Positions 3,231 to 45,587 of a stretch of 64,000 nt of DNA are shown piece after piece. The DNA comes from a virus (taxonomy: Duplodnaviria > Caudoviricetes). A program made the position numbers and the translations under genes. Location of the stretch: positions 1-64,000 of IMG/VR virus record IMGVR_UViG_3300020577_004340; one strand, 5' to 3'. A model generated the notes under the pieces. The model did not search any database. It was given only the letters and a program-made list of their open reading frames with translations, and had not been told where the DNA came from. Position 1 is the stretch's first letter. Every line of letters begins with the position of its first letter.

Positions 3231-3677
3231 ATGAGTCATTGGATATATCAAGATAAAATAATTGAAGATTTACCAATAGGTATAGTTGGATTTGTGTATA
3301 AAATTACTAATATTGAGACTGGTAAAATGTATATTGGTAGAAAATATGCCACCTCTAGAAAAAGAAAGGCATTAACTAAAGCACAAAAAATATCTGGCAG
3401 GAAACGTAAAGATGTAATTGTCACTGAAAGCAATTGGGCAACATATACCGGTTCAAATAAGTATCTAAATTCAGAAATTGAAGCATTGGGTAAAGATAAA
3501 TTTAAGTTTGAAATTTTATATTTTGGAAAAACTAAAGGGGTCGTAAATTACATTGAAGAAACATTGCATCACAAATTGGATGTGATATTGAATGAAAATT
3601 ATTATAACGAATGTATTGGTCCAAGAAGATTTATGGCATTACGGTATAATAAAGAATTACAAGGATTATTACTATGA
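3231..3677 (+). CDS. GIY-YIG nuclease
   Basis: GFVYKITN...KMYIGRK, Y-x-GS, EILY, conserved E and YYN. Confidence 0.8.
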   Translation: MSHWIYQDKIIEDLPIGIVGFVYKITNIETGKMYIGRKYATSRKRKALTKAQKISGRKRKDVIVTESNWATYTGSNKYLNSEIEALGKDKFKFEILYFGKTKGVVNYIEETLHHKLDVILNENYYNECIGPRRFMALRYNKELQGLLL

Positions 3678-30039: not shown

Positions 30040-30389
30040 AATCATTAGTAGAATTATTATTAGAGGATAATGTAACTGCACCTGGTATGGAATATGACAC
30101 TCCATATGCTTTTAGTTCCGGTTCAGTGGGTACACCAGTCAATGAAATTACATACGCTGATTTTAAATCTGACCAGACAATTTCATTTAAAGAAAAAATT
30201 AACAATAGTATTAAAGAAGTTAATAGTCAATTAAGAGTTTTAGAAGGCGTTGTTCGTAGAGCAAGTAAATTAAAATTGGAAATGGATTTAGACCAACGAG
30301 TATTTTATAAAAATACATTTACTCGCTTTGGGCAAATACAAGAAAGACTACAAAAATTATCTAATAACATCAGAGAGTTATCTAAATGA
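30036..30389 (+). CDS. Hypothetical head-associated protein
   Basis: MKSLVELLLE N-terminus, YDTPYAF motif, VNE site. Confidence 0.5.
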   Translation: MKSLVELLLEDNVTAPGMEYDTPYAFSSGSVGTPVNEITYADFKSDQTISFKEKINNSIKEVNSQLRVLEGVVRRASKLKLEMDLDQRVFYKNTFTRFGQIQERLQKLSNNIRELSK

Positions 30390-31000
30390 AAAAATTATTA
30401 ATTGAATATACACCGTTCGCTGTTACTCCACAGAAAATTAATGAATCCATTACAAATAACAATGGCAGATTAATAGTAACTGGAGTCATTCAACGAGCAA
30501 ATGTTCCTAACCAGAATTCCAGAGTTTATCCAAAAGATATCTTGGAAAGAGAAGTGGCTAGGTATATAGCAGAAGAAGTTGCACAGAATAGAGCTTTAGG
30601 TGAATTAGACCATCCAGAAGATTCAGTTGTTAACTTACGAAATGTATCACATAATATAATTGATATTAAATGGAATGGAGATGATGTTATTGGTACAATC
30701 GAAATATTAACGACTCCATCAGGTAATATTTTACGAGAGTTATTAAAAAATGGAATAACAGTAGGTATTTCTTCTAGAGGAATGGGTAGCGTTCGGCAAT
30801 TGTATGAAGATACAGTTGAAGTGGATAGTGATTTTAGTTTGTTATGTTGGGATTTCGTATCCAATCCATCTACACATGGTGCATTTATGAAACCAGTAAA
30901 TGAATCGATTAATGTTCAAAATAATCCAAATGATTACGCCCATCAATTGATTAGAGATATAGTATGCGATTTATCTGGGGTGTGTTGTTTAAAAAAATAA
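30386..31000 (+). CDS. Prohead core protease (T4 gp21-like)
   Basis: NQNSRVYP, ALGELDHP, VSH, GISSRGMGS, DFVSNPS. Confidence 0.95.
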   Translation: MKKLLIEYTPFAVTPQKINESITNNNGRLIVTGVIQRANVPNQNSRVYPKDILEREVARYIAEEVAQNRALGELDHPEDSVVNLRNVSHNIIDIKWNGDDVIGTIEILTTPSGNILRELLKNGITVGISSRGMGSVRQLYEDTVEVDSDFSLLCWDFVSNPSTHGAFMKPVNESINVQNNPNDYAHQLIRDIVCDLSGVCCLKK

Positions 31001-31040: not shown

Positions 31041-31071
31041 TAGTATTATTTTAAAAATAAAAAAAAGGAAA

Positions 31072-31551
31072 ATGGAAATGTTAACTTTAAAAGAAAAAAA
31101 ATTAGTAAAAGAGTATGCTAAAAAAATAGCAATGAAAAAACAGTCTTCTTCTACAACTAAAAAGAAAAAATTAGTTGAAGCTAATGGTGACGAAATGACA
31201 AGAGTAGAAGTGTACGATTCAATTAATTGGGATTTAGTAGGGAAAGAAATATTAAAGAAGTTTCACATTAACACTAAATTAAGTTTCCGATTGGGTGGAA
31301 ATGCTGGTAGAGAATATCCAGTAATGGAGAGTGATAATATAATAAAACAATGTGGCATATTTAAATATGCAATTGGTGAATGTTATTTAACTTTTTTCAA
31401 TGCTCAATTAAATACTGACTCGTCAAGCAAAATCAAGTTCTGGGGGACTATCAATTTTGATTATCCGGGTAATGGTATGAGAATTGGGCAAATTGTAATT
31501 GATAATAACGGTAAAATTACTGTTGACACCGATGCCCCAAGACATAATTAA
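31072..31551 (+). CDS. Hypothetical protein with MLTLKEKKLVKEYA leader
   Basis: Leader, then LVE site, then a unique domain. Confidence 0.65.
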   Translation: MEMLTLKEKKLVKEYAKKIAMKKQSSSTTKKKKLVEANGDEMTRVEVYDSINWDLVGKEILKKFHINTKLSFRLGGNAGREYPVMESDNIIKQCGIFKYAIGECYLTFFNAQLNTDSSSKIKFWGTINFDYPGNGMRIGQIVIDNNGKITVDTDAPRHN

Positions 31552-31595
31552 ATAAAAAATAAAAAAAATATTTGTTACAACTAAAGGAAAATGTA

Positions 31596-32603
31596 ATGTT
31601 AACATTAAAAGAAAAAAAATTAGTCAAAGAGTACGCCACTAAGTTAATCAGAAAAAGAAAACTCAATGAGGCTTTCCAGTCAAAATTAATGAAACGCATA
31701 CTGACAATACAAATTCCACCATTTAAATGGGGTGGATCTCACGGAAAGAAAATTGGCGTTGAAGGTAATATAATGAATTATTTACGAGTATTAGGAGTTA
31801 AGCCATCAGAAATTACAGATGAACAGATTACCGTGGGTGAAAATGGTGGAGTGAATTATAGTAAAAGTAATTCCGATTCTATTGTATTAATTTATGATAA
31901 ATCAACAAATAATTTAATTAATATAGTAGTAGATGGAAAAAATTCAAGAGTATATGCTAGAAGAAATAAATATTACAGTAGTGTAGATGCAAGTGATCCT
32001 AAATTTAAACGTAATTCTACTGCAACGTATGTAGCTGGAGGTGCTAGATTTGGGGGGTCATCGAAAGATGACAAGACTGGATTAGCCAGTATCGAAGCAA
32101 TGACGGTTGGTGAAATGAATTCATATCCATTTTATGCAATTAATGTAAAGGTAGACCCCACATCAAAAACTGTAAATACCGATTTTAGTGCATCTATGGA
32201 AGCCAATTACAGATTACTTGATAAGAAAAAATCTGAATACAAACAGAAAATAGTGGATATTAGAGCGGCTGCAAGAAAGGATGTAAAATATCCAGATGAA
32301 TTGACTGATGGCGCAAATAAATTAGAAGAGATAGGTAATTTACTAACTAATTTATTTGAACTAGTTAAGAAAAATCCTGCTAAATACGCATCTTCGACTT
32401 TTGGTAAGACAACGACATACGGCAAGGGGATGAGCTCTAAATCATACTATACAGATTTTTTGACTATGTATGCTAAAGTAGCTCGAATATTAGAAGATTC
32501 GGCTACACTTTACACAAAAGGGGCTGATTTTTCAACTGAGATGAGACGTTTTGATACAGATGCTACTGACTTAATACAACGATTACAACGAGCACTTAAA
32601 TAA
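31596..32603 (+). CDS. Hypothetical protein with MLTLKEKKLVKEYA leader
   Basis: ATG 31596 after AAAGGA; leader, then LNE site. Confidence 0.7.
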   Translation: MLTLKEKKLVKEYATKLIRKRKLNEAFQSKLMKRILTIQIPPFKWGGSHGKKIGVEGNIMNYLRVLGVKPSEITDEQITVGENGGVNYSKSNSDSIVLIYDKSTNNLINIVVDGKNSRVYARRNKYYSSVDASDPKFKRNSTATYVAGGARFGGSSKDDKTGLASIEAMTVGEMNSYPFYAINVKVDPTSKTVNTDFSASMEANYRLLDKKKSEYKQKIVDIRAAARKDVKYPDELTDGANKLEEIGNLLTNLFELVKKNPAKYASSTFGKTTTYGKGMSSKSYYTDFLTMYAKVARILEDSATLYTKGADFSTEMRRFDTDATDLIQRLQRALK

Positions 32604-33139
32604 TGCCATTATACACAAAAAGAAAAGATGCTGGCCTTTTAAAAGGCATTAACCGTGAATTACTTCATAGAATAGTTTCTATTGAATTGGCGGTATATCA
32701 ATTAAATTTGTCAGCATCTCCGACAAATATATACGGAGAATCATCGAAAAAAGCATATAATCCGCCGGTTAGAATTATCGCTTTACCTAGTATAGATCCA
32801 AAATCAACATCAGGTGAAAATGTAGTGGATTATGTACAAACGACACGTTTTGCAATGATGGCATCCGATTTAAAAGAAGCTAACCTTGTTATAGAGGCGG
32901 GTAATATTATTGAATTTAATAATAGATTCTATGAAGTGGATAATGTAATTGACACACATTATTGGTCTGGTAGAAACCCTGAGACGTTGTTCAATGTAAC
33001 AGAAGATAAAATGGCTGAATATGGATATAATCATTCAATTTCTATAGAATGTCATTTAACTAAGTTATCAAGTATATCTATTATAGATGTTCATACTGCT
33101 ACTACTTATGAATATCGACACACAAACAAAATAGTTTAA
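32603..33139 (+). CDS. Neck/head-completion protein (gp14-like)
   Basis: NIYGES, GNIIEFNNRFYEVD head-tail adaptor pattern. Confidence 0.6.
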   Translation: MPLYTKRKDAGLLKGINRELLHRIVSIELAVYQLNLSASPTNIYGESSKKAYNPPVRIIALPSIDPKSTSGENVVDYVQTTRFAMMASDLKEANLVIEAGNIIEFNNRFYEVDNVIDTHYWSGRNPETLFNVTEDKMAEYGYNHSISIECHLTKLSSISIIDVHTATTYEYRHTNKIV

Positions 33140-33150
33140 AGGAAAATGTA

Positions 33151-33448
33151 ATGTTAACATTAAAAGAAAAAAAAATTAGTAAAACAGTATGCTCGTTCAC
33201 TAATGGAATCCCCGGCAAATCAAGCTAAGGAAGATATAATATTGAATGCAATTAGAAAAAGTGGGTTAGCATCAACCGATAATAAAGTTTCTCAAGGAAA
33301 AATGCCCGGATTGTATTCATGTGAATTGAAAGGAAATAGTATAATTGATGTTGATAGATTAATCAACCTTCAAAAAAATTCATTTTCTAAAGTATCTATA
33401 CGTAGTGGTAATGACACTTTGAAAGCTTATTTTAGATTTAATAATTAA
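33151..33448 (+). CDS. Leader-bearing small protein with one extra A in an A9 run
   Basis: With A8 instead of A9 it reads MLTLKEKKLVKQYARSLME, in frame with the 33203 ORF. Confidence 0.65.
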
Positions 33449-33460
33449 ACAAAATTAAAA

Positions 33461-33796
33461 ATGGCAATAAAAGCAAATTTAGAAGCAAACGACCAGATTT
33501 ATCCATCGGCGTATTATAAAATTAGTAAACTAATATTAGCCACAGCTGATATTGAATCATTTGTACCGGATAAAGATGGTAACTTAGTATTATCATATGA
33601 AAAAATACATGAGGATTTTGCTCATGTTGTTGTATATCTAGATGAAGAATCTAGACGTAAAAATGTGTTTCCGGTGAAAACGTTTGCAATTGAGTTTAAT
33701 TATGATATTAATAATACAAATAATGCCTATCAACAAGCATACGATGCATTGAAGAATGTAGAGGCGTTAGCAAATTCAGAAATCATTGATTGTTAA
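33461..33796 (+). CDS. Hypothetical protein
   Basis: Complete ORF; AYYKI...AYQQAYDALK pattern seen in small tail-associated proteins. Confidence 0.55.
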   Translation: MAIKANLEANDQIYPSAYYKISKLILATADIESFVPDKDGNLVLSYEKIHEDFAHVVVYLDEESRRKNVFPVKTFAIEFNYDINNTNNAYQQAYDALKNVEALANSEIIDC

Positions 33797-33807
33797 TGAG
33801 GAATAAT

Positions 33808-34137
33808 ATGACAGCATTTAATAAGAATGACAAAAGAGCTTTTTTAGAGAGACTTAAGACTTTCTCCAGCATGGGTGAATCGATTTATCGTGCAAAAGAT
33901 TTAAAAACTCGTTGTGACGAAGTTAGAAATATAATTGAAATTGCTGAGCAATTGACATTGCAGGAGACTGAAAATTGGTTCGATGATGTGACTGTTAATA
34001 AGCACATGAAGACACTTAAAGAATCATATAAAATCTTTGAGAAAACTACAAACGAAATTATTACTTCACAACAACGTCTAGAATCTTCATATGAAGATAT
34101 TGCGAATATTCTAGAAAGATATTATGATATAGGATAA
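33808..34137 (+). CDS. Hypothetical coiled-coil protein
   Basis: ENWFDDVTV...LERYYDI. GAGGA upstream of ATG 33808 (track start 33790). Confidence 0.55.
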   Translation: MTAFNKNDKRAFLERLKTFSSMGESIYRAKDLKTRCDEVRNIIEIAEQLTLQETENWFDDVTVNKHMKTLKESYKIFEKTTNEIITSQQRLESSYEDIANILERYYDIG

Positions 34138-34141
34138 TATT

Positions 34142-34345
34142 ATGGGAATTACAGAAACTGTATTAAATGAAGTAGATGATTTACTCATGGATATTGAAAT
34201 ATTAATTGATTCTGATTATGGAAAGGTGGATGTGGCAACCTTTAAAAAGGCATATTCAAATATATCAGATGAATACATTAAGAAGTTTACTAAATTGTTG
34301 ACTACTATTCAAAGGAATGGCAATTTACAAAATACTGGAAAATAA
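34142..34345 (+). CDS. Small hypothetical protein
   Basis: Complete ORF; VLNE near the N-terminus. Confidence 0.5.
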   Translation: MGITETVLNEVDDLLMDIEILIDSDYGKVDVATFKKAYSNISDEYIKKFTKLLTTIQRNGNLQNTGK

Positions 34346-34348
34346 ATT

Positions 34349-35530
34349 ATGTACGAAGTTAATGTTAACATATGGCCAGGGTCTTCATCATTTGTAAGTG
34401 GGTCAACTCCATTTGGGTTCTATGATACAGACCCAGCATTTATAAATGATATTGATAAAGTAGCTGTTTGGTGTTCAAGACGGTTAGGGTATCCCATCAC
34501 TGACATTGAATTACAGGATGTTAATTTCTATGCAGCCTTTGAAGAATCGATAATTGAATATTCTTCACAAATCAATTCATTGAATGCTAGAGATAATCTA
34601 CTTCCGATGATTGGTTTACCATCAACAACAAATTTAAGTGGGCAATTAATTAACCCATCTTTACAAGGGATTTTTCGTGTTGCGAAACAGTATGGCTCTG
34701 AAGTAGGAGCTGGCGGTTATCTTACTTATTACACTGGTTCAATATCAATAACAAGAGATAAACAAGTATATGATTTATTATCAGAAGAGATAGATTTAGA
34801 AAAAGGTGATTTTAATACAGATACATTCACGATACGTAGAATATTGTATGAATATAGTCCAGCAATAAATAGGTCAATTGACCCTGGTATAAGTTCTGGA
34901 TTTGTAGATCAACAAATGTTAACACAATTTGGCTGGAGTGGTTTTTCATCTGGTATGAATTATACTACAATGCCATTATATCATGACCTGTTAAAATTAC
35001 AGGCAGTTGAATTTTATGACCAAATTAAAAAATCAGGCTATTCATTTCAATTAACGAATAATAGATTAAGAATATTTCCAATACCGACATCAGATTATAA
35101 AATATTCTTTTTATATACGTTGAACGATGAGATATTGGAAAATTTATCAACTGGTTCCGGGGCATATGATACTACTGGCTCAGGTGTAATTACTGATTAT
35201 AGTAATATTCCATATAATAATATTCCATATACATTAATAAATGATATTGGCAAAACTTGGATACGAAAATATACATTAGCATTATCGAAAGAAATGTTGG
35301 GGTTGGTTAGAGGAAAATATTCAGCAATACCAATACCAGAAAATGAAATCACACTAAATGGGGCTGAATTAGTTAGTTCCGCCCAAACAGAAAAAGATAC
35401 TTTGATTCAAGAATTAAAAGATACATTGGAATCAATGGGAAGGCAAGCACAATTAGAACGTAAGACAGCTGAATCAGATGCCTTAACATCTCAAATTAAT
35501 AAAGTTCCAATGAAAATATATATTAGATAA
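34349..35530 (+). CDS. Neck protein (T4 gp13-like)
   Basis: RRLGYPITDIEL, WIRKYTLALSKEMLGLVRGKY, ITLNG. Confidence 0.85.
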   Translation: MYEVNVNIWPGSSSFVSGSTPFGFYDTDPAFINDIDKVAVWCSRRLGYPITDIELQDVNFYAAFEESIIEYSSQINSLNARDNLLPMIGLPSTTNLSGQLINPSLQGIFRVAKQYGSEVGAGGYLTYYTGSISITRDKQVYDLLSEEIDLEKGDFNTDTFTIRRILYEYSPAINRSIDPGISSGFVDQQMLTQFGWSGFSSGMNYTTMPLYHDLLKLQAVEFYDQIKKSGYSFQLTNNRLRIFPIPTSDYKIFFLYTLNDEILENLSTGSGAYDTTGSGVITDYSNIPYNNIPYTLINDIGKTWIRKYTLALSKEMLGLVRGKYSAIPIPENEITLNGAELVSSAQTEKDTLIQELKDTLESMGRQAQLERKTAESDALTSQINKVPMKIYIR

Positions 35531-35536
35531 AAATAA

Positions 35537-35568
35537 TTTGGAATATTACAATAATATTAATAACTTTG
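35537..35568 (+). promoter_or_regulatory. Bacteroidota-type primary-sigma promoter
   Basis: TTTG (35537) - 20 nt - TAACTTTG (35561); the following ~24 nt match those after the 31033 promoter. Confidence 0.78.
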
Positions 35569-35596
35569 TAGTATTATTTTAAAAATAAAAAATGTT

Positions 35597-35962
35597 ATGA
35601 GTGTATATAAAGAATTAAGATCAGTAGTTGATGTTATAGAAAAAGGCAGTAAACAAATTTATACTGATTCAATTGATTTTGGAATGCCAGTAAAAAGTAA
35701 AACTGACCCAATTGTGAAAACAATTAAGGGGATAATAACTCAATATAAACCAAGTGTTGATACACACTGACATGGAACCGGGTCAACACAAACAATTACA
35801 TTTAATGGTGGTGTTGGGCAATATATTGAGGCTGGAGATTCTATTATTAAGATAATATACACTACTACAAGAAAACATTCATCTGGTATAATTGGATATA
35901 TATCTGTTGAGGGAAATACTCCACCGGAGATAAAAAAACGAGCAAGAGCAATGGATTATTAA
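35597..35962 (+). pseudogene. 121-codon frame interrupted by a single in-frame TGA (pseudogene or readthrough gene)
   Basis: ATG 35597, 57 codons, TGA 35768-35770, then 63 open codons to TAA 35962. Confidence 0.6.
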
Positions 35963-36018
35963 ATAATTTAGTTTAAAATAAAAAACATAAATTATTTTAT
36001 ATTTATTTATAAAAAAGA

Positions 36019-36249
36019 ATGACGAAATCGGAAAAGAAATTTTTATCAATAACACCAGGAACATTGGGCGTAAATGTAATTAATAATGATATTGCATTTG
36101 CATTAAGAGAATTTAAATCTTTAATGAAAAGAAGTGGAAAATTAAATAATATTAAAAAATGTTATGTAAAACCATCAATACGCAGAAAAGAAAAATTAGA
36201 TTCAGCAAAGTTTAAACAGTATTTGAAAACGAAGAGGGAATTATGTTAA
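36019..36249 (+). CDS. rpsU: Phage-encoded ribosomal protein bS21
   Basis: V..NNDIAFALREFK...KRSG...YVKPSIRRK matches the bS21 pattern (ALR/KxFK, KPS); located next to capsid genes. Confidence 0.8.
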   Translation: MTKSEKKFLSITPGTLGVNVINNDIAFALREFKSLMKRSGKLNNIKKCYVKPSIRRKEKLDSAKFKQYLKTKRELC

Positions 36250-36405
36250 ATAAACTTGAAAAAAGAATTACCAAAAGACCCAACAATCGATGATTTAGAA
36301 ACAGTATTAGATAAATATGGATATTCCTCAGTTTTTGATTGGGTAAATTCCTTGTTAAAATAACAATTAATCGATATTTTCTAGATTTTTTTAAAAAATA
36401 TTAAT

Positions 36406-36437
36406 GTTTTGAAAAAAACTTTATATTTATATTAAAC
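36406..36437 (+). promoter_or_regulatory. Putative phage late promoter (TATTTAT core with extended upstream match)
   Basis: GTTTTGAAAAAAACTTTATATTTATATTAAAC closely matches 46433-46464 upstream of the sheath gene. Confidence 0.6.
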
Positions 36438-36442
36438 AATAT

Positions 36443-36505
36443 ACCATATTCTTAATATATGGTTACACATAAAAAATCCTACCATTAAGATTCCTAATAA
36501 TCTTA
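36443..36505 (+). promoter_or_regulatory. Twin hairpins in the scaffold/capsid 5' leader
   Basis: accatat-TCTTAAT-atatggt and taagatt-CCTAAT-aatctta. Confidence 0.55.
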
Positions 36506-36529
36506 TATTTACAATACATAGAGGTATAA

Positions 36530-37414
36530 ATGAAGAAACCGGCAAAATCAACATTATTGTCCGAAGTAATCGCAGATGCTAAAGCAGTAAAACATACAGC
36601 TGAACAAGCAGCATTCTCAGCGTTAAAAGAGGCTTTCCAGCCAACCATCAATCGATTGGTTTCAAATAAATTGGCAGAAGAAGGTGAATTAGATGATGAA
36701 CCAGAAACTGATGATATCGATTTAGATTCAACAGAATCACCAGAACCACCAGCTGCAGAACCAACTCCAGAAGAAGAAGACTACATGGAAGACGAACCAG
36801 ATGAAGATGATGTTGACTTGGAAGAAATTTTGAGAGAACTGGATGGCGAAGATGATGAGGAAATGATGGATGAAGAAGATGACATGGAAGGCAACGAAGA
36901 TTTATTTAATGAATCAGATGATGCGGACGAAGACGATTTAGATGACTCAATTGATGAAATTATCAATGAAGTTGAAGATGAATTGGAAGAAGAAGACGAC
37001 ATGGAAGACGAACCAGCTCCGTCACCCGAAGTAACAGCTGAAAGTAAAAGATTACGAAGACAATTAAAGAAGACTAGATTAGACTTAAAAGAGGCGCATC
37101 TTGCAATCGCTACTTTAAAAAGTGCATTGACAGAAGTTAACATTTTAAATACTAAGTTGACATATGCAACAAAATTATTGAAAAATAATAATTTAAGTGA
37201 AGCTAAACAAACTGAAATTTTAAAATCGTTTGACAGAGCAAAAACTATAAGAGAAGTTAAGTTAGTCTATGCAACGATTGTAGAAAGTTTGAAGAAAGTT
37301 AAAACACCTACTATTAAAGAATCTATTAATAAAACACCTAAAGCAGTTAATCCAAATGGCAGTGATTTCTATTCATTCGCACCAAGATGGAAAGACTTAG
37401 CGGGTATTAAATAA
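36530..37414 (+). CDS. Prohead scaffolding protein (gp22-like)
   Basis: Highly acidic middle, coiled C-terminus, RWKDLAGIK end; immediately upstream of the capsid gene. Confidence 0.8.
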   Translation: MKKPAKSTLLSEVIADAKAVKHTAEQAAFSALKEAFQPTINRLVSNKLAEEGELDDEPETDDIDLDSTESPEPPAAEPTPEEEDYMEDEPDEDDVDLEEILRELDGEDDEEMMDEEDDMEGNEDLFNESDDADEDDLDDSIDEIINEVEDELEEEDDMEDEPAPSPEVTAESKRLRRQLKKTRLDLKEAHLAIATLKSALTEVNILNTKLTYATKLLKNNNLSEAKQTEILKSFDRAKTIREVKLVYATIVESLKKVKTPTIKESINKTPKAVNPNGSDFYSFAPRWKDLAGIK

Positions 37415-37443
37415 TTAAAATAAAAACAGAAGGAAACTTATAA

Positions 37444-39096
37444 ATGGATATATCAAAATTAGCGCCGGGTAACTTGGCGGAACAAAAGAAAAAAGAAGCC
37501 ATGTTGTTAGTTAGCAAGTGGGCTAAAACAGGACTTTTAGAGGGCTTAGCTGAAAAAGATAAGGGAGCGGTAGCTACATTATTAGATAATCAGGCTAGAC
37601 AATGTCTAAAAGAGGCGAATAACACAAGTACACAAAATGGAGCTGAAGCTTGGAATGGTGTTGCATTACCATTGATTCGTAGAATTTTTGGTGAAATTGC
37701 ATCAAAAGAATTCTTATCAGTTCAACCAATGAATATGCCTTCAGGCCTTGTATTTTGGTTAGAATATAAATATGCAACTGGACAACCAGGTTATACTACT
37801 AATTCTGGATTAGGTTCACAAGAAGATTCAATCTGGGGTGTAACTGATGCTAGAAAAGGTGATGTGGCTGGAACAGGTGGTTTATATGGTGCTGGAAGAT
37901 ATGGTTATTCAATTAATGATTATAGTTCAAGTGCATTTAGATGTAATGAAACAGCATCTGCAGGTAATATACTAGCTGGTACTGGTTCAGTTGAGGCTTG
38001 TAATTTAACATCAGATATTAATTTTAATTCTGATTTCAGTGGGTCAGTAGTTAACGCTGCTCAAATTAAGAAAATTATAGTTCCAATATCTGGAAGTTCA
38101 CCGAACAACAATATTACAAACGCAGACCCATTGGGTGTAAGAGCATTTACAATTTCTGGAACTGGTATTAACGAAATATATCAAGAATTTACAACTGTAT
38201 CAAGTGATAGTAAGACGGTGACATTTGTGGTATCAGGTTCAATTACTTCAGCAACTGATGTTGTATTGTATTACCATAAACAACCAACTGATATTACTAG
38301 AGGTGATTTTGAGGACAGTAAGACACAAGAAAATCCATTGGATATTCCAAGTTTAGACTTACAATTCCATCAAGAGACAATTGTTGCTAAAACTAGAAAG
38401 TTGAAAGCACACTGGACACCAGAATTTGCACAAGACATTAATGCGTACCAAAACATTGATGCTGAAGCTGAATTGACTGGTATTTTAGGTGAATATGTAT
38501 CACAAGAAATTGATTTGGAATTATTAGATATGTTATTGGATGGGGCACAATCTAAAGATTATTGGTCAGCCAATTTAGGTTATGTGTACAACGCTGGTAG
38601 CAAATCATTTAGTCAAGTAGCAGCAAATGTTGCAGCATACAATCAAGGAACATGGTTCCAAACATTGGGAACTAAAATCCAAAAAATGTCAAATGAGATA
38701 CATTCATTGACACTTAGAGGTGGAGCCAATTTCTTAGTTACTAGCCCAAGAGTTGCAACTATATTAGAATCAATTCCAGGTTATGCAGCTGATACTGATG
38801 GCGATAAAATGAAATTCGCAATGGGTGTTCAAAAGATTGGTACTATTAACAGTAGATTTACAGTATATAAGAACCCTTATATGAGAAGTAATGTTATTTT
38901 AATGGGTTACAGAGGTGCTCAATATTTGGAAACAGGTGCTGTTTACAGTCCATATATTCCATTGATGATGACTCCAACTGTTTTAGATCCAGATAACTTC
39001 ACACCAAGAAAGGGTATTATGACAAGATATGCTAAGAAACTATTAAGACCTGAATTCTATGGTAAATTATATATCAAGGATTTAGATACGGTGTAA
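37444..39096 (+). CDS. Major capsid protein (T4 gp23-like)
   Basis: SVQPMNMPSGLVF, AKTRKLKAHWTPEFAQD, DAEAEL, YSPYIPL, PRKGIMTRY. Confidence 0.97.
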   Translation: MDISKLAPGNLAEQKKKEAMLLVSKWAKTGLLEGLAEKDKGAVATLLDNQARQCLKEANNTSTQNGAEAWNGVALPLIRRIFGEIASKEFLSVQPMNMPSGLVFWLEYKYATGQPGYTTNSGLGSQEDSIWGVTDARKGDVAGTGGLYGAGRYGYSINDYSSSAFRCNETASAGNILAGTGSVEACNLTSDINFNSDFSGSVVNAAQIKKIIVPISGSSPNNNITNADPLGVRAFTISGTGINEIYQEFTTVSSDSKTVTFVVSGSITSATDVVLYYHKQPTDITRGDFEDSKTQENPLDIPSLDLQFHQETIVAKTRKLKAHWTPEFAQDINAYQNIDAEAELTGILGEYVSQEIDLELLDMLLDGAQSKDYWSANLGYVYNAGSKSFSQVAANVAAYNQGTWFQTLGTKIQKMSNEIHSLTLRGGANFLVTSPRVATILESIPGYAADTDGDKMKFAMGVQKIGTINSRFTVYKNPYMRSNVILMGYRGAQYLETGAVYSPYIPLMMTPTVLDPDNFTPRKGIMTRYAKKLLRPEFYGKLYIKDLDTV

Positions 39097-39111
39097 CCGT
39101 TATAAACCGAA

Positions 39112-39151
39112 AAAATCGCCCCTATTAAGAAATTAGTAGGGGATTTTTTTT
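39112..39151 (+). terminator. Rho-independent terminator after the capsid gene
   Basis: cccctattaa-gaaa-ttagtagggg followed by a T-run. Confidence 0.85.
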
Positions 39152-39184
39152 GAATTGTCGTAAAATAATATTATATTGTATTGT

Positions 39185-40720
39185 ATGAATAAAAAATGTT
39201 TAATGTGTGGTACTGTATTGACTGTAAAACAAAAACAATTTTGTTCAGTTCAATGCAAAAGTAAATCACAAATTAGAAAGGTGGAAATTGATACAACAAA
39301 ATTGTTTAGATGTAAATTAACTGGAAAAACCGTGTCACTTGGTTCTAAAATGTCCGGATACTTAACTAAATATTCTAAGACAGTTTTGAATAAAGAATAT
39401 GATTCCGATGATTGGGAAATCATTGATAATATTATTACTGTTGTACCCACAATGAGTTGCCCGATATGTATGAGATGGTCAACAAAAGACGTACAAAACA
39501 AATCAGGATGTTTAACAGCACATATTAATAAAGAGCACAAATTAAATATAGATGAATTTTGTACAATTTATCCAGAATTCAAACATCTTTGGTCAATACA
39601 TTGGAAAAAACAAACATACAATGAAGAATTAAATATTCCAGATAATAATATACAATGTTTGGAGTGTGGGAAATTATTAAAAAAGATAACATGTACCCAT
39701 TTAAAAAAACATAATATGAGTAATTCCCAATATTCAGATAAATATGGTGTAACCAATCTATCGTCATTGAACACTAGAAAAAAATTACAAGTATTATATG
39801 CAAATAATGATAATTTATTAGATACTAATTGGAATTCTAAAGGACAGATTGAGATACAAACGTTTATTAATGATTTAGGATTTAAGACTGTAATTAGAAG
39901 AAAAGATCACGTTGAATTAGATATATTCATACCAGAAAAAAATATAGCTATTGAATATAATGGTTTATATTGGCATTCCGAATTTCATGGTAAAAAAAAT
40001 AAATTATACCATGTTCATAAAACTGATTATTGTGAAAAAAATGGAATTCATTTAATACATGTATTTGAGGATGAATGGTATAATAAAAATGATATTATTA
40101 AATCCAGAATTAAAAATATATTAGGAATTAATACAGAACGTATTTATGCTAGGCAATGTACAATACAACCAGTTTCAGGTATAGACAAAAAAGAATTTTT
40201 AGATTTAAATCACATTCAAGGGCATGATAACAGTTCATATTCAATCGGATTGTTTTATAAAACGGATTTGGTTTCCATAATGACTTTTAGGAAGCCGTTG
40301 GTTAGTATGGGGCACAAAAACACGGCTAATAATATAATTGAATTGTCTAGATTTTGCAGTAGATTAAATACAAATGTAATAGGTGCGGCAGATAAATTGT
40401 TTAAATACTTTTTAAAGAATAATACTGAATACGATACAATAATTTCATATGCAGATAGACGTTGGACAACGACAATACGAGAGTCTGTATATGATAAATT
40501 GGGTTTTGTTAATATTGGAAAATCTAACCCAAATTATTGGTACATGAAACGGCACAAAATTAGATTATCAAGATTTAATTACACAAAAAATGCAATATTA
40601 GATAAATTTCCAACTACCTCCCCTGAATTGACAGAATGGGAAAATATGTTGAAGTTAGGTTATGACAGAATATGGGATTGTGGGACATTAAAATATAAAT
40701 ACGATGTGAAAAATAATTAA
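39185..40720 (+). CDS. Hef-like/PD-(D/E)XK homing endonuclease with Zn fingers
   Basis: Multiple CxxC/C2H2 motifs; ELDIFIPEKNIAIEYNGLYWH, IHVFEDEW, IYARQC, ELSRFC, SYADRRW, IWDCG. Confidence 0.85.
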   Translation: MNKKCLMCGTVLTVKQKQFCSVQCKSKSQIRKVEIDTTKLFRCKLTGKTVSLGSKMSGYLTKYSKTVLNKEYDSDDWEIIDNIITVVPTMSCPICMRWSTKDVQNKSGCLTAHINKEHKLNIDEFCTIYPEFKHLWSIHWKKQTYNEELNIPDNNIQCLECGKLLKKITCTHLKKHNMSNSQYSDKYGVTNLSSLNTRKKLQVLYANNDNLLDTNWNSKGQIEIQTFINDLGFKTVIRRKDHVELDIFIPEKNIAIEYNGLYWHSEFHGKKNKLYHVHKTDYCEKNGIHLIHVFEDEWYNKNDIIKSRIKNILGINTERIYARQCTIQPVSGIDKKEFLDLNHIQGHDNSSYSIGLFYKTDLVSIMTFRKPLVSMGHKNTANNIIELSRFCSRLNTNVIGAADKLFKYFLKNNTEYDTIISYADRRWTTTIRESVYDKLGFVNIGKSNPNYWYMKRHKIRLSRFNYTKNAILDKFPTTSPELTEWENMLKLGYDRIWDCGTLKYKYDVKNN

Positions 40721-40727
40721 TGAAAAA

Positions 40728-40759
40728 TTTGGATAATACATAAACACTATATATATTTG
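40728..40759 (+). promoter_or_regulatory. Bacteroidota-type primary-sigma promoter
   Basis: TTTG (40728) - 20 nt - TATATTTG (40752). Confidence 0.75.
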
Positions 40760-40779
40760 TAAGGATAAAACTAAATAAA

Positions 40780-41034
40780 ATGAAAAGGTTCAAATTTACA
40801 TTAGTATATAAAGCATTTGGTGCTAATATCAATTTACCAGTTACATTCGAATATTCGGGTTGGAGGTATCCATCAAAAAGAACTCCACAAAAAGAAATAC
40901 TTAGCATTATAAGTTATGATACGAGTGATATTGACATTGCAACCATTGGATTAGACAATTCGTTTACTTATGGGTTAAAAGGAGATGTAATTAATCAATT
41001 ATATTCAAATTATTCAGAATGGCAAGAAATATAA
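40780..41034 (+). CDS. Hypothetical protein
   Basis: Complete ORF behind a host-type promoter. Confidence 0.55.
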   Translation: MKRFKFTLVYKAFGANINLPVTFEYSGWRYPSKRTPQKEILSIISYDTSDIDIATIGLDNSFTYGLKGDVINQLYSNYSEWQEI

Positions 41035-41045
41035 AAACTGAAATT

Positions 41046-41198
41046 ATGAAAAATAAAAAAATTGTAAAACGACAAAAAAAATCTCTTGAAGATAAGAAAC
41101 CTATTTTAACCAAAAAAGACTTGAAAATTACTAAACTATTTGATGAAATTGATACTGGCGTATCATATGATGATTTGTTAGAAGAATATGGCTATTAA
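41046..41198 (+). CDS. Small protein (50 aa), basic N-half and acidic C-half, not in ORF track
   Basis: ATG 41046 to TAA 41198. Confidence 0.45.
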   Translation: MKNKKIVKRQKKSLEDKKPILTKKDLKITKLFDEIDTGVSYDDLLEEYGY

Positions 41199-41242
41199 AT
41201 TTGTCAGAGAATTTATATTTATTAATATAATATAGGATTACA

Positions 41243-41497
41243 ATGAGCGTATTTAACGAAGAATATATTCAGGAAATCGTTGAGGTAACTGTTCCATTCC
41301 CATTTATATCAACCAACGAAGTTGGGGAAACGACGGCAATCACAATGGTTAACGACATTCAAGGCGAAGATATCAATGGTATGCCAATGATATTAGAATT
41401 AGAAACGGAAACTGAATATAGTTCAACATATGCTACATATCAATTAGTATCCTCGACGAAAGAATTTAAAAATAATAACGTAGTACAGGAAAATTAA
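41243..41497 (+). CDS. Small acidic hypothetical protein
   Basis: Complete ORF after TATTTAT and AGGA. Confidence 0.5.
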   Translation: MSVFNEEYIQEIVEVTVPFPFISTNEVGETTAITMVNDIQGEDINGMPMILELETETEYSSTYATYQLVSSTKEFKNNNVVQEN

Positions 41498-41498
41498 A

Positions 41499-41690
41499 AT
41501 GATAAAAGTATATATCCCACTAGCAGAAGTGAATCAAGTTATCCGTAGTGATAGTTATATTCCAACTGCCGTATATCTAGTAAACGATAAACCACAATAT
41601 ACAGAATTAGTTGAAATGACAATTCCATATAATAAATGGGAGAGTTGGTCAAAAAATATTCAAAATAAAAGAATGAAATTATGGGATTAG
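41499..41690 (+). CDS. Hypothetical protein
   Basis: Complete ORF in tight packing. Confidence 0.45.
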   Translation: MIKVYIPLAEVNQVIRSDSYIPTAVYLVNDKPQYTELVEMTIPYNKWESWSKNIQNKRMKLWD

Positions 41691-41893
41691 AACCAGGTAA
41701 TTTAATATTAATATCATTAAACAATCTATGTGACAAAATCAAACAGAAAATATTATCAGCCGATAATAGAAATACTGGTATAATAGAATATATAGATTAT
41801 AATACTAATTTAGTTGATGTTAAAATTAATAGACCGACAACAACTTTACCAATTATTGTAGAGGTTCCACTAGATAATATCATTCCTATTTAA
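41681..41893 (+). CDS. Small SH3/KOW-like hypothetical protein
   Basis: LEPGNLI...TGIIEYID...VDVKI pattern. Confidence 0.4.
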   Translation: MGLEPGNLILISLNNLCDKIKQKILSADNRNTGIIEYIDYNTNLVDVKINRPTTTLPIIVEVPLDNIIPI

Positions 41894-41995
41894 AATTAAG
41901 TATTTATAGTGAATGAGTACCTGTAATACAATAACTTTTTATAATAAATAATATACTTAACTATTAATAAAATTACGTTAGAACTAAAATAAAAT

Positions 41996-42646
41996 ATGGA
42001 ACGAAATCTTCAGTTATTGGAATATGATAATATTCAAATACGTCACCCATTGACGAAAAAAATGGTTACATTATACAGAATAATTGCATTATATACATTT
42101 AAAATTAATGATTTTCACATTGAGAAACATCAGATAGGCGGTTATGTTCAATCCATTGATAATATCGATATGAATACGTTGAATTGGGTTGATGGTAAAT
42201 CAAAAATCTTTGATTCGGCTGTAATAAAGAATGGTACTGTCACTTTACATAATTCACTGGTATTTGGAAATGCGATTGTGAGTGATTCGGTTGTTGCAAA
42301 TTATGCTAGAGTATATGGTAATACAGTAGTTGAATCGACTTTAGTAAATGATTTATCGGAAATTAGAGGTAATGCAAAAGTAACGAATTCTACATTGTAT
42401 AATTCAACACTTATATTCGAAGATGCTGTGGTATCAAATACGGAATTGCATACTGGCTCCAATATTAGGGGTAAAACGAATGTAACAGATTCTTTTTTAT
42501 ATGATACTGCCGAAATTAGCGGAACAGCTATTTGTGTTGGATGTAAATTAACGGGTGCTGCATTATTTAAAGAGGGTGAACATATTAATGAATTGCAAGA
42601 CAGAACATCTAATTTGCGATTTATAGACCCAGTAAATAAAGAGTAA
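41996..42646 (+). CDS. Left-handed beta-helix repeat protein
   Basis: LYRIIAL, GGYVQS, WV, then VFGNAIV/ARVYGNTVV/IRGNAKV repeats. Confidence 0.75.
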   Translation: MERNLQLLEYDNIQIRHPLTKKMVTLYRIIALYTFKINDFHIEKHQIGGYVQSIDNIDMNTLNWVDGKSKIFDSAVIKNGTVTLHNSLVFGNAIVSDSVVANYARVYGNTVVESTLVNDLSEIRGNAKVTNSTLYNSTLIFEDAVVSNTELHTGSNIRGKTNVTDSFLYDTAEISGTAICVGCKLTGAALFKEGEHINELQDRTSNLRFIDPVNKE

Positions 42647-43140
42647 TGAGTTATTCATTATTCAAGACAGAAATAATGGCATTAACTGGAATGCAACATG
42701 TTTCCAGAATCCAATTTGCCCAGACTGTTGGAAATGCTTATAATAATTTAGTGTTACGATGTTTCGAAACATTATCTGGCGGTGGGCAATTTCTGGCAGC
42801 TGCTGGTGGTGTAGGAGCTTTAATTAATGGAATACATTCAATTACCGAACAAAATCTACAACAGCACAATAACATTGATTTTTTTAATCAAATAGCTCCA
42901 TTTATATACACATATTGGGCAGGTCAACCATGTATTGGTCCATTAGGCGTGGTTACAGTTACGTCGCCAGGTACATTTCAAGGTCCAATAGTTCCACAAA
43001 ATTTCGATGCTACTATTTTTATAAATATTTTTCAAGGGGTAGTGGCCACCCATTTACTAACCTTACAAGGAACATATTTAAATTCAATAACAGGCGTTAC
43101 TACTCCATGGAGTGGGGCGACATTGATGACAACTCCATAG
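42646..43140 (+). CDS. Hypothetical protein (possible virion component)
   Basis: Complete ORF, TAATG-coupled to the previous gene. Confidence 0.5.
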   Translation: MSYSLFKTEIMALTGMQHVSRIQFAQTVGNAYNNLVLRCFETLSGGGQFLAAAGGVGALINGIHSITEQNLQQHNNIDFFNQIAPFIYTYWAGQPCIGPLGVVTVTSPGTFQGPIVPQNFDATIFINIFQGVVATHLLTLQGTYLNSITGVTTPWSGATLMTTP

Positions 43141-43143
43141 ATT

Positions 43144-43338
43144 ATGACTAAACCAACATTTCCGGAAAACAGTCCATTTTCATATGATGTATTGACGACA
43201 TATTCAATAAAGAAGTTGAAAAGAATGCAGGAAGATGAGAAAAAATCATCGGGTACATTCGTATGGTATATGTATCCATGTAATATTAAGAAATTATTGG
43301 AATATATTATTTGGGAAAAAACTGAAAATATTCAATAA
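43144..43338 (+). CDS. Hypothetical protein
   Basis: Complete ORF. Confidence 0.4.
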   Translation: MTKPTFPENSPFSYDVLTTYSIKKLKRMQEDEKKSSGTFVWYMYPCNIKKLLEYIIWEKTENIQ

Positions 43339-43342
43339 AAAA

Positions 43343-43374
43343 TTTGGAATGTTATTAAAGTGTACTTAACTTTG
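43343..43374 (+). promoter_or_regulatory. Bacteroidota-type primary-sigma promoter
   Basis: TTTG (43343) - 20 nt - TAACTTTG (43367). Confidence 0.78.
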
Positions 43375-43399
43375 TTGAAAATTATTAAAAACAATTATT

Positions 43400-43948
43400 A
43401 TGAAGACAATTAATATTATTTTTGTTTTATTATTATCCAATGTTATAATTGGACAGACAATGAGAGTAACATATTTCAGAGCTAAAGAAGTTAATAATAC
43501 CATTAATTTATACTGGAAGACATTTGTTGAAGATGGTACTGATACATTCAAGATTTATAAATCAATTAATTCGGGGGAATGTGATTATTCCGAGGATAAT
43601 TGGGAATTGATAACTAAAATATCCAATACCAACACTAAAGATGGGGATTATTATAATATTAGTACTACAAGAATTGTTGGTAAACAATATTATAGGTTAG
43701 TTTGGGGGCAATATAAAACTAAATTATATTCATACACAAATCTTAAAGACACGAATGAAATTCCTTTAGTGTATTGTTATGATAACGTTATACATGTACC
43801 CAACATAGACCGTATATTTAATGTATATAATGTAAATAATCAATTGGTGTTGACTAATGTTCAAGACGGGCAATCAATAGAAAATTTGCCAAGTGGTATA
43901 TATATTATTACAGACGATAACAATAGTTATAAAATTATTAAGAGGTAA
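43400..43948 (+). CDS. Exported protein with T9SS type-A C-terminal sorting domain
   Basis: Sec signal ..VIIGQ; F-x-A...LYWKT..E..F-x-I-x-x-S...YYRL Ig-like module; VYNVNNQLV...SIENLPSGIYII...KIIKR CTD. Confidence 0.7.
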   Translation: MKTINIIFVLLLSNVIIGQTMRVTYFRAKEVNNTINLYWKTFVEDGTDTFKIYKSINSGECDYSEDNWELITKISNTNTKDGDYYNISTTRIVGKQYYRLVWGQYKTKLYSYTNLKDTNEIPLVYCYDNVIHVPNIDRIFNVYNVNNQLVLTNVQDGQSIENLPSGIYIITDDNNSYKIIKR

Positions 43949-43949
43949 T

Positions 43950-44681
43950 ATGCCAAAAGTAGATTATGCAGAGTATAAAACGATAAAAGATAAAGTAGTT
44001 GCTAAGGTTACTAAGCAAGGAGCATCTGCATTTACAAAATTAGCCAAACAATATGAAGAATTAGATAAAGAATTATCTATACTTGAGGCAAAAAAGAGAG
44101 AATTAAACGAATTCCAAAATTCAGTTAAGGACAAAGAATCGTCTTTAAAATCTCAAATTCGGGAAAAAATTCAATCGGTTTTCGATGAATCTGAACAAGC
44201 AATGACATTGACTGTTGAATGTTTAGGTTCGGCATTCACGTTATCCAAAGAAACTGAAAATAATAGAGAAAAGGTGATTACAAAATCAGGAGAAATAATT
44301 TCAACTGATTATCAAAAGGTAATTAATCTACTTCTTGAACAAACTCCCGAACTTAAATCGACGATTGATTTGTTGATTAAGAAAGCAAGTGTTATAGCTG
44401 AAAATGATATAACAAAGGCAGGAACAGCACGTGGAGTTAGAATTAGTGCAATTGAATCTATTGTGACTGAAGGTATATGGGATAAAATTACATCAATAGC
44501 GAATAAAATTAGTTCTAAATTAATGGGATTATTTTCAGCATTGACAAATAGACAGAAAAAAATTAATATATTATTGGGTAATCTTAAAGAATCAAAGAAC
44601 GAAAAACCAATTATGTTAAATAAACGTGAGAAAGAATTAGTAAAAGAATATGCTAGAAAAATAATAGAAAAACGTAAATAA
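43950..44681 (+). CDS. Coiled-coil protein with a C-terminal copy of the KELVKEYA motif
   Basis: ATG 43950 after AGAGGT; ends ...LKES..MLNKREKELVKEYARKIIEKRK. Confidence 0.65.
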   Translation: MPKVDYAEYKTIKDKVVAKVTKQGASAFTKLAKQYEELDKELSILEAKKRELNEFQNSVKDKESSLKSQIREKIQSVFDESEQAMTLTVECLGSAFTLSKETENNREKVITKSGEIISTDYQKVINLLLEQTPELKSTIDLLIKKASVIAENDITKAGTARGVRISAIESIVTEGIWDKITSIANKISSKLMGLFSALTNRQKKINILLGNLKESKNEKPIMLNKREKELVKEYARKIIEKRK

Positions 44682-44954: not shown

Positions 44955-45587
44955 ATGGCGAAATATAAAGTGCCAAAAGTTACCATTCCATTATGTGTTG
45001 AGCAAATAGCTGCAAAAGAATTAGTTATTACTAAACCAGTAAGCTTTTTAACTGGTAAACCTGGAACAGGTAAAACATGGCTAGCATGCCATATTGCATT
45101 ATCTTTACTAAATGTAGATAAAGATAAAATTATAATTACCAGACCAACTGTTGGTACTGAAGATAATGGGTTCATTCCAGGGGATATTAATGAAAAATTA
45201 GACCCATGGATGGTACCAATTAGAGATAATATTCGGAAATTAGTTGGAACTGAAACCTTACAAAAATTGGAATCGGATTTAAAACTTCAATTAGTATCAC
45301 TCCAACATTTCAGGGGTAGAACATTTGAAAATTCAGTTTGTATAGTAGATGAATTTCAGAATTTAAAGTGTAAACAATTGGCTATGGTGATTGGGCGTTT
45401 GGGAGTAAATTCAATGATGATATTATGTGGAGATGGTCGCCAGATCGATGTAGCTGGAGGATTATCAAAATCAGCATTTTCTAAAATGGAATTGTTAAGA
45501 CAATCAAAACATGTTAATATAATTGATTTACAAGAAAATCACAGACTGCCAGAATTGTTTGAAATATTGGAATTGTTAGATGAGTAA
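44955..45587 (+). CDS. phoH: PhoH-family ATPase
   Basis: GKPGTGKT, ITRP, GFIPGDINEKLDPW, RGRTF, DEFQN, GRLG, GDxxQID. Confidence 0.95.
   Translation: MAKYKVPKVTIPLCVEQIAAKELVITKPVSFLTGKPGTGKTWLACHIALSLLNVDKDKIIITRPTVGTEDNGFIPGDINEKLDPWMVPIRDNIRKLVGTETLQKLESDLKLQLVSLQHFRGRTFENSVCIVDEFQNLKCKQLAMVIGRLGVNSMMILCGDGRQIDVAGGLSKSAFSKMELLRQSKHVNIIDLQENHRLPELFEILELLDE

Follow-up and report, generated by a model that had tools for sequence, protein, structure and literature searches.

In T4, a capsid-targeting sequence (CTS) of 10-19 residues is sufficient for the packaging of foreign proteins; amongst T4-type internal proteins (IPs), of which more than 30 variants are known, the proteins are diverse and the CTS alone is conserved, and Alt is processed at its C-terminus too (PMC9026906, PMC3012670, PMC2839356, PMC5694885). 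The giant phages phiKZ, 201phi2-1 and SPN3US have a related prohead protease that cleaves after Glu, and their propeptides are inferred to direct proteins into the prohead, with the first 15 residues of SPN3US gp53 and gp54 being identical (PMC5694885). T4-type genomes also contain mobile regulatory cassettes (PeSLs) and IP-locus elements, which mediate the shuffling of modules; these are short conserved sequences of a non-coding (promoter or stem-loop) kind that flank indels or replacements between close relatives (PMC2839356, PMC4122927).

The stretch of DNA analysed here (64,000 nucleotides, positions 1 to 64,000 of IMG/VR record IMGVR_UViG_3300020577_004340; hereafter the window) holds the head module of a T4-type uncultured phage, whose genome record of 123,975 bp is ~66% complete. 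An earlier note on the window had proposed that it encodes a portable, T4-like candidate leader cleaved after Glu. This core idea withstood all of the sequence-level tests that we ran, and by analogy we consider that the tag is probably a lineage-specific counterpart of the T4 CTS. As with the CTS of IPI, IPII, IPIII and Alt, which is removed by gp21 (PMC9026906, PMC3012670, PMC2839356), the phage has homologues of gp20, gp21 (S77) and gp23 and a gp22-like scaffold, and the tag is a short putative propeptide common to unrelated proteins of one phage, bounded by hydrophobic-x-Glu and attached to cargo that is polymorphic between close relatives. Unlike the 10-residue T4 sequence (MKTYQEFIAE type), MLTLKEKKLVKEYAKKI is about twice as long, with no sequence similarity to it by inspection; it also occurs at the C-terminus and, internally, between two cargo moieties, and the tagged genes lie between protease and scaffold in the head module, whereas T4 uses separate IP loci.

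The propeptides of the giant phages, mostly of more than 100 residues, N-terminal and carried by paralogues, differ from the tag, which is short, modular and borne by unrelated proteins, whilst a related prohead protease with presumed cleavage after Glu is common to both. Short conserved sequences flank indels and replacements here, as PeSLs and IP-locus elements do, but the repeated element in the window is coding and conserved as a peptide. Encapsulin cargo-loading peptides are short and terminal, often C-terminal, and bring unrelated cargo into an HK97-fold shell. Such peptides bind the shell and are retained, in systems without scaffold, protease, portal or DNA, whereas the present locus belongs to a tailed phage with a maturation protease; its context, a complete T4-type head and tail module, is not that of an encapsulin-type cargo peptide. 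On these comparisons the tag would be a variant of the T4-type leader system, set apart by its C-terminal and internal use and by a leader sequence of its own.

Tag copies and tagged genes

The T4-type head genes are all present in the window, where a portal match (Portal_T4, E 1.1e-73, Pfam) is accompanied by the following:

30386-31000, + strand: prohead protease of the T4 gp21 family (Pfam Peptidase_S77, E 2.9e-32), the presumed tag-removing enzyme
36530-37414, + strand: acidic scaffold protein in the gp22 position, assigned by position and composition and conserved in relatives
37444-39096, + strand: major capsid protein (Pfam Gp23, E 9.7e-72)

The closest capsid proteins of cultured phages are 48-54% identical to that of the window, no cultured phage with an LVKEYA-core tag was found, and a megablast search with 10 kb against 50,697 phage records gave no match; the hosts of this environmental T4-type clade are probably Bacteroidota. 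The tag cluster begins directly after the protease, as the earlier note had it. Genome-wide search confines the tag to five sites across the 123,975 bp, with no further copy, and a tag HMM scores the true copies at 16-40 bits, the best decoy reaching 8.2 bits. The tag comprises ~17-25 residues with the core K-x-L-V-K-E-Y-A-x-K-[LI], and is basic (net charge +2 to +4). Its copies, and the DNA shared by two of them, are:

31078-31551, + strand: tagged cargo 1, 157 residues, tag at residues 1-17 (31078-31128); accessory gene
31582-31619, + strand: 38-bp RBS-plus-tag DNA, identical to 33137-33174 with 0 mismatches
31596-32603, + strand: tagged cargo 2, 335 residues, tag at residues 1-17
33151-33448, + strand: tagged cargo 3, frame-broken, with ATG at 33151 and the body ORF called at 33203-33448
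36243-36362, + strand: decayed tagged gene (MLNKLEK, a frame break in the A-run and an internal deletion)
43950-44681, + strand: cargo 4, 243 residues, with a C-terminal tag at 44613-44678

The earlier note had the tag starting three unrelated ORFs. This is correct for 31078 and 31596, of which MLTLKEKKLVKEYA is the N-terminal peptide, but not for 33151, where the A-run has nine nucleotides (A9, 33167-33175) as against A8 in the other two N-terminal copies. As a consequence, frame 0 of cargo 3 ends after 25 codons (stop at 33226-33228), and the remainder of the tag, LVKQYARSLME, together with an 81-residue body, lies in the +1 frame. The same A9 run is found in the close relative L001. In public assemblies, in-frame 98-residue forms of this cargo (P0029/P0030) occur on 12 contigs and the 81-residue calls on 8; how long the A-run is in these in-frame forms is inferred from protein calls. 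The degenerate DNA copy reported at 36243 proved to be the wreck of a tagged gene: translation of its +1 frame gives ELPKDPTIDDLETVLDKYGYSSVFDWVNSLLK, a homologue of P0007's second cargo, and at the equivalent position L001 has a different, intact tagged gene of 99 residues. At 44613 the variant tag MLNKREKELVKEYARKII forms the C-terminal end of the 43950 ORF, after LKE/S (the slash marking the predicted cut), again in agreement with the note.

Pfam and PHROGs searches with the four cargo proteins returned nothing informative, and with the 31596 model Foldseek found nothing in PDB or BFVD at E <=0.001. For cargo 1, which has no homologue among 80 related loci, the ESM Atlas offered no useful lead; its Atlas structural matches start at residue 33. 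The sequence upstream of the tags was inspected for a promoter motif by eye only.

Placement and turnover of the tag

At least 14 cargo moieties are mutually unrelated (BLASTP E above 1e-3); they range from 56 to 335 residues, and similarity is lost abruptly where the tag ends. The signal is not restricted to the N-terminus. The C-terminal use that the earlier note had found unusual is real and conserved (window 43950, P0004 and P0005) and recurs in a second tag class (P0018-P0023), whilst in P0006-P0009, P0042 and L082:2825 a single reading frame carries two cargo moieties with a tag between them, the fusions of P0006-P0009 and P0042 being known as gene calls, at the protein level only. Within a single cargo family, that of 43950, the tag is N-terminal in some phages, C-terminal here, and in others internal, with a second cargo behind it; conservation of the C-terminal tag is 72-94%, as against 48-67% for the body, and in P0005-P0008 the bodies are 96-98% identical and the cargo after the tag differs.

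The contig L001 is collinear with the window and 97.5% identical to it, and the only differences between them are the gain or loss of tagged genes. Both indels are tagged-gene cassettes, one with an out-of-frame tag-tag junction, and the breakpoints of tagged-gene gain, loss and swap fall in or at the tag. Tagged genes are accessory, having no homologue in 80 related loci, whereas their untagged neighbours recur in 11-55 loci. Searches with degenerate tag DNA patterns over IMG/VR and JGI metagenomes added only L093 to L082 and the L001 contig. The idea of a mobile cassette of RBS plus tag survives in part: tagged cassettes do turn over between near-identical genomes, but the RBS belongs to the shared DNA only in the two identical copies, and the other tags have their own generic AGGA- or GGG-type site. 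Likewise, the suggestion that the tag turns arbitrary genes into effectors fits the unrelated cargo, but two of the four cargos here belong to conserved head-module families (31596 and 43950), the former of which is, by its sequence, a conserved family of internal head proteins.

Alternative readings of the tag

That conservation is an argument for regarding the tag as an assembly helix of core or scaffold parts, degraded or retained for morphogenesis (like T4 gp67, gp68 and IPIII), and not as a means of effector delivery. Conservation of the 31596 and 43950 families extends across lineages, their genes belong to the head module and stand beside the protease, the 43950 body is modelled by AF2 largely as long helices, and a T4 IPIII mutant has head-assembly defects (PMC9026906). 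Most tagged genes are, however, small, accessory and variable between the 97.5%-identical genomes, unlike structural parts, and frame-broken and decayed copies are tolerated; we regard this reading as unlikely.

We think it very improbable that the tag, instead of being a capsid address, serves as a leader recognised by some other machine (for example a chaperone, or a modifying enzyme of the RiPP-like kind). A radical-SAM/SPASM partner enzyme was considered and rejected, PF04055 having no match in the ~66%-complete genome record with controls positive, and the tag lacks the Cys/Ser/Thr pattern typical of modified cores. In addition, the tagged genes lie within the head module, and the tag is bounded by a head-protease motif that the capsid and scaffold proteins have likewise kept. 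This motif, [LIV]-x-E with A, S or T as the next residue, lies in the linker or at the tag end and matches the gp21 type (L/I/V-x-E). As previously noted, a hydrophobic-x-Glu site follows each N-terminal copy, with predicted cuts at LVE34/A in cargo 1 (31171-31179), LNE25/A in cargo 2 (31662-31670) and LME/S in cargo 3 (33200-33208), whilst LKE/S (44583-44591) precedes the C-terminal copy in a flexible linker; by chance, only ~5% of 17-residue stretches would contain [LIVM]xE[AST]. The capsid protein has its predicted propeptide cut site at LKE57/AN, with [LIV]-x-E/AN kept in L082, L005, L010 and L025, and the scaffold protein has a conserved ALKE/AF site close to its N-terminus. In the 31596 family (alignment A3) a nearly invariant junction, [LI]-x-E/AF(K/Q)S, with E25 and F27 themselves nearly invariant, stands behind leaders that vary by lineage, and E/ARDN is kept behind the N-terminal leaders of the 43950 family (alignment A2). 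The weaker Glu-ending leaders listed by the earlier note at 3674, 22856, 30036, 34142 and 61501 did not hold up, the frequency of [LIVM]xE ending at residues 8-14 (25 of 147 ORFs, 17%, against ~11% expected) not being beyond chance.

A third possibility, that the shared element acts as DNA or RNA (a hot spot of recombination, or an expression cassette in which the RBS is joined to an unstructured, A-rich start) and its peptide is idle, draws on the 38-bp identity that includes the RBS, a claim of the earlier note borne out by exactly two occurrences (31582 and 33137) against none expected in shuffles, and on the indel breakpoints and the chimeric junction that fall in tags. It is largely refuted by the codon pattern: pairwise comparison of the LVKEYA core gives 60 synonymous and 7 non-synonymous codon differences, with synonymous variants at five of the six codons, and selection on the tag core, as judged from these codons, acts at the peptide level. 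Furthermore, upstream sequences differ between copies, and the tag is conserved at the C-terminus and inside ORFs, where no role in translation start is possible. We give this explanation hardly any credence.

AF2 models place the tag outside the fold of the cargo in both proteins modelled. In the 31596 protein a tag helix (residues 4-20) precedes a folded body, with pLDDT <50 at residues 16-25, and in the 43950 protein a separate helix (225-242) follows a low-confidence linker (216-224), so modelling suggests a detached helix on a flexible linker in either case. Since hydrophobic moments were not significantly above those of shuffles (P 0.03-0.5), we do not claim that this helix is amphipathic. 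Although phage paralogues can diverge beyond recognition, the notion that the tagged proteins are diverged paralogues, recognisable only at the N-terminus, is scarcely credible given these models, the spread of cargo lengths, the abrupt drop in similarity, and a tag that occurs at either terminus of one family and between two unrelated moieties.

A candidate route into the capsid

If the tag is a counterpart of the T4 CTS, it would dock its protein onto the scaffold core during prohead assembly, with the acidic scaffold as presumed receptor for the basic tag. By further analogy with T4, the head protease would cut after Glu, with LKE and VKE within the tag as probable further sites; the resulting fragments of the tag would then leave, and the mature protein would stay with the DNA and be ejected into the host. 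We put forward, tentatively, a more specific possibility: that the tag is a position-independent capsid address which, with protease sites on both sides, may load whichever protein precedes or follows it, or the two together as a polyprotein that resolves itself. Such an arrangement could let a head protein swap N- and C-terminal tagging between lineages, and A8/A9 slippage, in a run made by the tag's own Lys codons, might shift one cargo at least between tagged and untagged states within the population.

Were the tag to load the capsid, this environmental T4-type clade would possess a plug-in system for virion-delivered proteins, amongst which T4 IPI is an anti-restriction protein. The tag would then flag, from sequence, candidate counter-defence or host-takeover proteins, mostly unannotated ORFans that vary between near-identical genomes. 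C-terminal and internal placement would imply that T4-type addresses are not confined to the N-terminus, which bears on how the scaffold core reads the signal, and would enlarge the range of designs by which foreign proteins could be packaged into phage heads.

Leaders of this kind extend beyond the LVKEYA core. Lineage-specific leaders shared by unrelated ORFs were found in L005, L007, L010, L025, L056 and L093, those of L010 being short and T4-like (MNKKIWNE, MKLIDILNE), and a generalised leader regular expression showed 55-fold N-terminal enrichment, a figure that is partly circular, the expression having been derived from some of the hits. In more distant relatives, orthologous cargo bears the leader of its own lineage, and these lineage-specific leaders form a ready-made collection in which co-variation might point to the receptor.

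Head module and tag copies in the window

The virus record is a single sequence of 123,975 bp with 30% G+C, and the window is its first 64 kb. The comparison with T4 drawn in the earlier note applies to homologous machinery, because a T4-type head module with a Gp23-family capsid protein is present, together with a T4-type portal, a Peptidase_S77 protease and a scaffold. Amongst cultured phages, the closest capsid proteins are those of Microcystis phage Mel-JY01 (54% identity), Flavobacterium phage immuto (48%) and Rhodothermus phage RM378 (33%).

Features of the T4-type head module
27340-29160, portal (Portal_T4)
between portal and prohead protease, two conserved core ORFs
30386-31000, prohead protease (Peptidase_S77)
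36530-37414, scaffold, strongly acidic
37444-39096, capsid protein, Gp23 family

A phage-encoded bS21 (36019-36249; Pfam Ribosomal_S21, 7.6e-08), kept in 42 related loci, lies immediately 5' of the decayed tagged gene and the scaffold. The 514-aa ORF that adjoins the capsid gene on its 3' side (39176-40720) matches a ROS/MucR-type zinc finger (2.5e-07) and, weakly and under the cut-off, the Mom family (0.0011); a similar Cys-rich ORF occupies the equivalent place in the related locus L010.

The tag had been described as opening three ORFs, and MLTLKEKKLVKEYA does stand at the start of those at 31078 and 31596; the third copy, at 33151, is out of frame. The tag variant at the C-terminal end of the 43950 ORF and the degenerate copy at 36243 were both found as claimed, and the shared 38-bp string occurs twice with zero mismatches, where 0 occurrences are expected by chance. 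A six-frame scan combined with a tag HMM detected no further tag copies in the whole genome, with scores of 16-40 bits for genuine copies, the highest-scoring reversed-sequence decoy reaching 8.2 bits. The net charge of the tag is +2 to +4; its amphipathicity is not significant.

The third copy contains nine A's (33167-33175) in place of the eight of the other two N-terminal copies, so that translation from the ATG at 33151 reaches a stop after 25 codons, with LVKQYARSLME and an 81-aa body in the +1 frame. In the protein database the in-frame 98-aa form (P0029, P0030) is present on 12 contigs, versus 8, this genome included, for the 81-aa call, and each variant of residue 40 is seen with both forms. 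A-runs of at least nine number just three across the 124 kb. Phase-variation-like switching, transcriptional slippage and plain decay are all possible accounts of the A8/A9 difference; frame repair at 33167-33175 would take either one A fewer or a +1 shift.

A peptide outside the fold, and candidate cut sites

Codons were compared across eight tag copies: four from the window (the 33151 copy minus one A), three from L001, a relative 97.5% identical to the window, and one from the related locus L082. The LVKEYA core shows 60 synonymous versus 7 non-synonymous pairwise codon changes, with synonymous variants at five of its six codons, and the 5' and 3' flanks of the tag are unrelated between copies, two identical copies excepted. 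The conserved element is the peptide, and it lies outside the fold. The AlphaFold2 model of the 31596 protein (17-sequence alignment, mean pLDDT 79) has a helix at residues 4-20 and, past a low-confidence stretch (residues 16-25, pLDDT below 50) containing LNE25/A, a confident body; that of the 43950 protein (23 sequences, pLDDT 70) places the tag in a separate terminal helix (225-242) behind a low-confidence linker (216-224) containing LKE/S (a slash marks the predicted cut).

Predicted sites of the form [LIV]-x-E followed by A or S stand behind each N-terminal tag, and LKE/S stands ahead of the C-terminal one; the background for such a site is about 5% of 17-residue stretches. The same motif is conserved both in the capsid propeptide (LKE/AN in the window; IKE/AN, LNE/AN and VTE/AN in relatives) and close to the N-terminus of the scaffold. 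It is also conserved in the 43950 family, as E/ARDN, and the 31596 family has the junction E/AF(K/Q)S, with E25 and F27 nearly invariant. The candidate motif agrees with the published specificity of T4 gp21 (PMC9026906, PMC5694885).

C-terminal and internal tags

The C-terminal use of the tag is settled by the 43950 family, in which C-terminal or internal tags are 72-94% identical versus 48-67% for the bodies. In L082, P0010, P0024 and P0027 the tag is N-terminal (e.g. MKLTLIQRNQVKRYAKRLVE/ARDN) and there is none at the C-terminus. The window protein and P0004-P0009 have no N-terminal leader, start approximately where other members would be cut, and carry the tag behind the body, after NL(K/N)E/S; in P0006-P0009, which are known as gene calls, a second, variable cargo follows past the tag, after KRKL(N/T)E (KRKMNE in P0009). 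P0018-P0023 end in a tail that is a tag of another class, MIQKIISEEISK, matching the N-terminal leader at L025:7607 at 9 of 12 residues. As the C-terminal tag retains an initiator Met, it probably arose when the body was fused in frame to the start of a tagged gene lying downstream; it has been retained since then. Internal tags are also found in P0042 (a gene call) and in the 268-aa ORF L082:2825-3631, where the tag separates two mutually similar halves and the C-terminal part is a homologue of the window's 34142 ORF. A PhoH-like ATPase (44955-45587; Pfam 6.4e-45) lies just 3' of the C-terminally tagged 43950 gene.

Turnover of tagged genes and lineage-specific leaders

With tags removed, 14 cargo moieties of this tag class are mutually unrelated (BLASTP E above 1e-3). 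No more distant locus has a homologue of the 31078 or the 33203 cargo, two of the window's four, and those of 31596 and 43950 have one each, in L010 and L082; conservation of untagged neighbours extends to 11-55 loci. The contig L001 comes from a different metagenome and is collinear with the window, and both of its indels involve tagged genes: L001 has an intact 99-aa tagged gene at the site of the window's 36243 wreck, and a 0.7-kb insertion of two tagged genes 3' of the 45580 ORF, the second of these two genes containing an out-of-frame junction of two tag copies. In the tagged gene at L001:15353-15610, a second partial tag (LVKEFATKLVGKRKLTE) with its cargo lies one base out of frame behind the tag, which looks like a recombination scar between two tag copies. 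The bodies of P0005-P0008 are 96-98% identical, yet the sequences behind the tag differ.

This tag is missing from relatives with 54-65% capsid-protein identity, which have leaders of their own, common to unrelated ORFs.

Leaders shared by unrelated ORFs in related loci
L005, MKKTTKNLLRKIIKEEI, 3 ORFs
L025, MSQLRQIIKKLIMEE, 4 ORFs
L025, MLKLTKIYNLIKEE, 2 ORFs
L010, MNKKIWNE, 3 ORFs, plus near variants MNSKIWNQ and MNRQIWNE on two more
L010, MKLIDILNE, 2 ORFs
L007, L056 and L093, leaders of similar kind, ORFs not counted

Two leader classes, short and T4-like, coexist in one relative (MNKKIWNE and MKLIDILNE, L010:13972-17400). In every lineage the 31596-family protein begins with the local leader, preceding the invariant junction, the pattern expected if a shared receptor, co-evolving with the phage, reads the address.

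The T4 capsid-targeting sequence is N-terminal, comprises 10-19 residues and is enough to package foreign proteins; T-even internal proteins are diverse, with only this sequence conserved, over 30 variants are known from loci with modular exchange, and both the N- and the C-terminus of Alt are processed (PMC9026906, PMC3012670, PMC2839356). Judged by sequence, the tag system is a variant of this already known kind, a putative short address on diverse cargo. The tag differs from the T4 signal in sequence, is longer, is used irrespective of position and belongs to a distant environmental T4-type clade. The genome record, about 66% complete, has no radical-SAM gene, the partner expected of a leader recognised by a modifying enzyme of that type.

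Two other N-termini were observed. A 115-aa head-module protein (33790-34137 in the window), conserved in 54 loci, has in most relatives a short leader ending in ILNE (e.g. MNKYENKLMKHILNE/KYLGE); the window's copy is without it and has a TTG start overlapping the preceding ORF. In L002, L009, L027, L039, L042, L058 and L060, pairs of large ORFs 3' of the capsid gene have the common N-terminus M(A/P)xWKKV(I/V)VSGS, probably a conserved domain by which tail-fibre-like proteins are attached, and unrelated to the tag.
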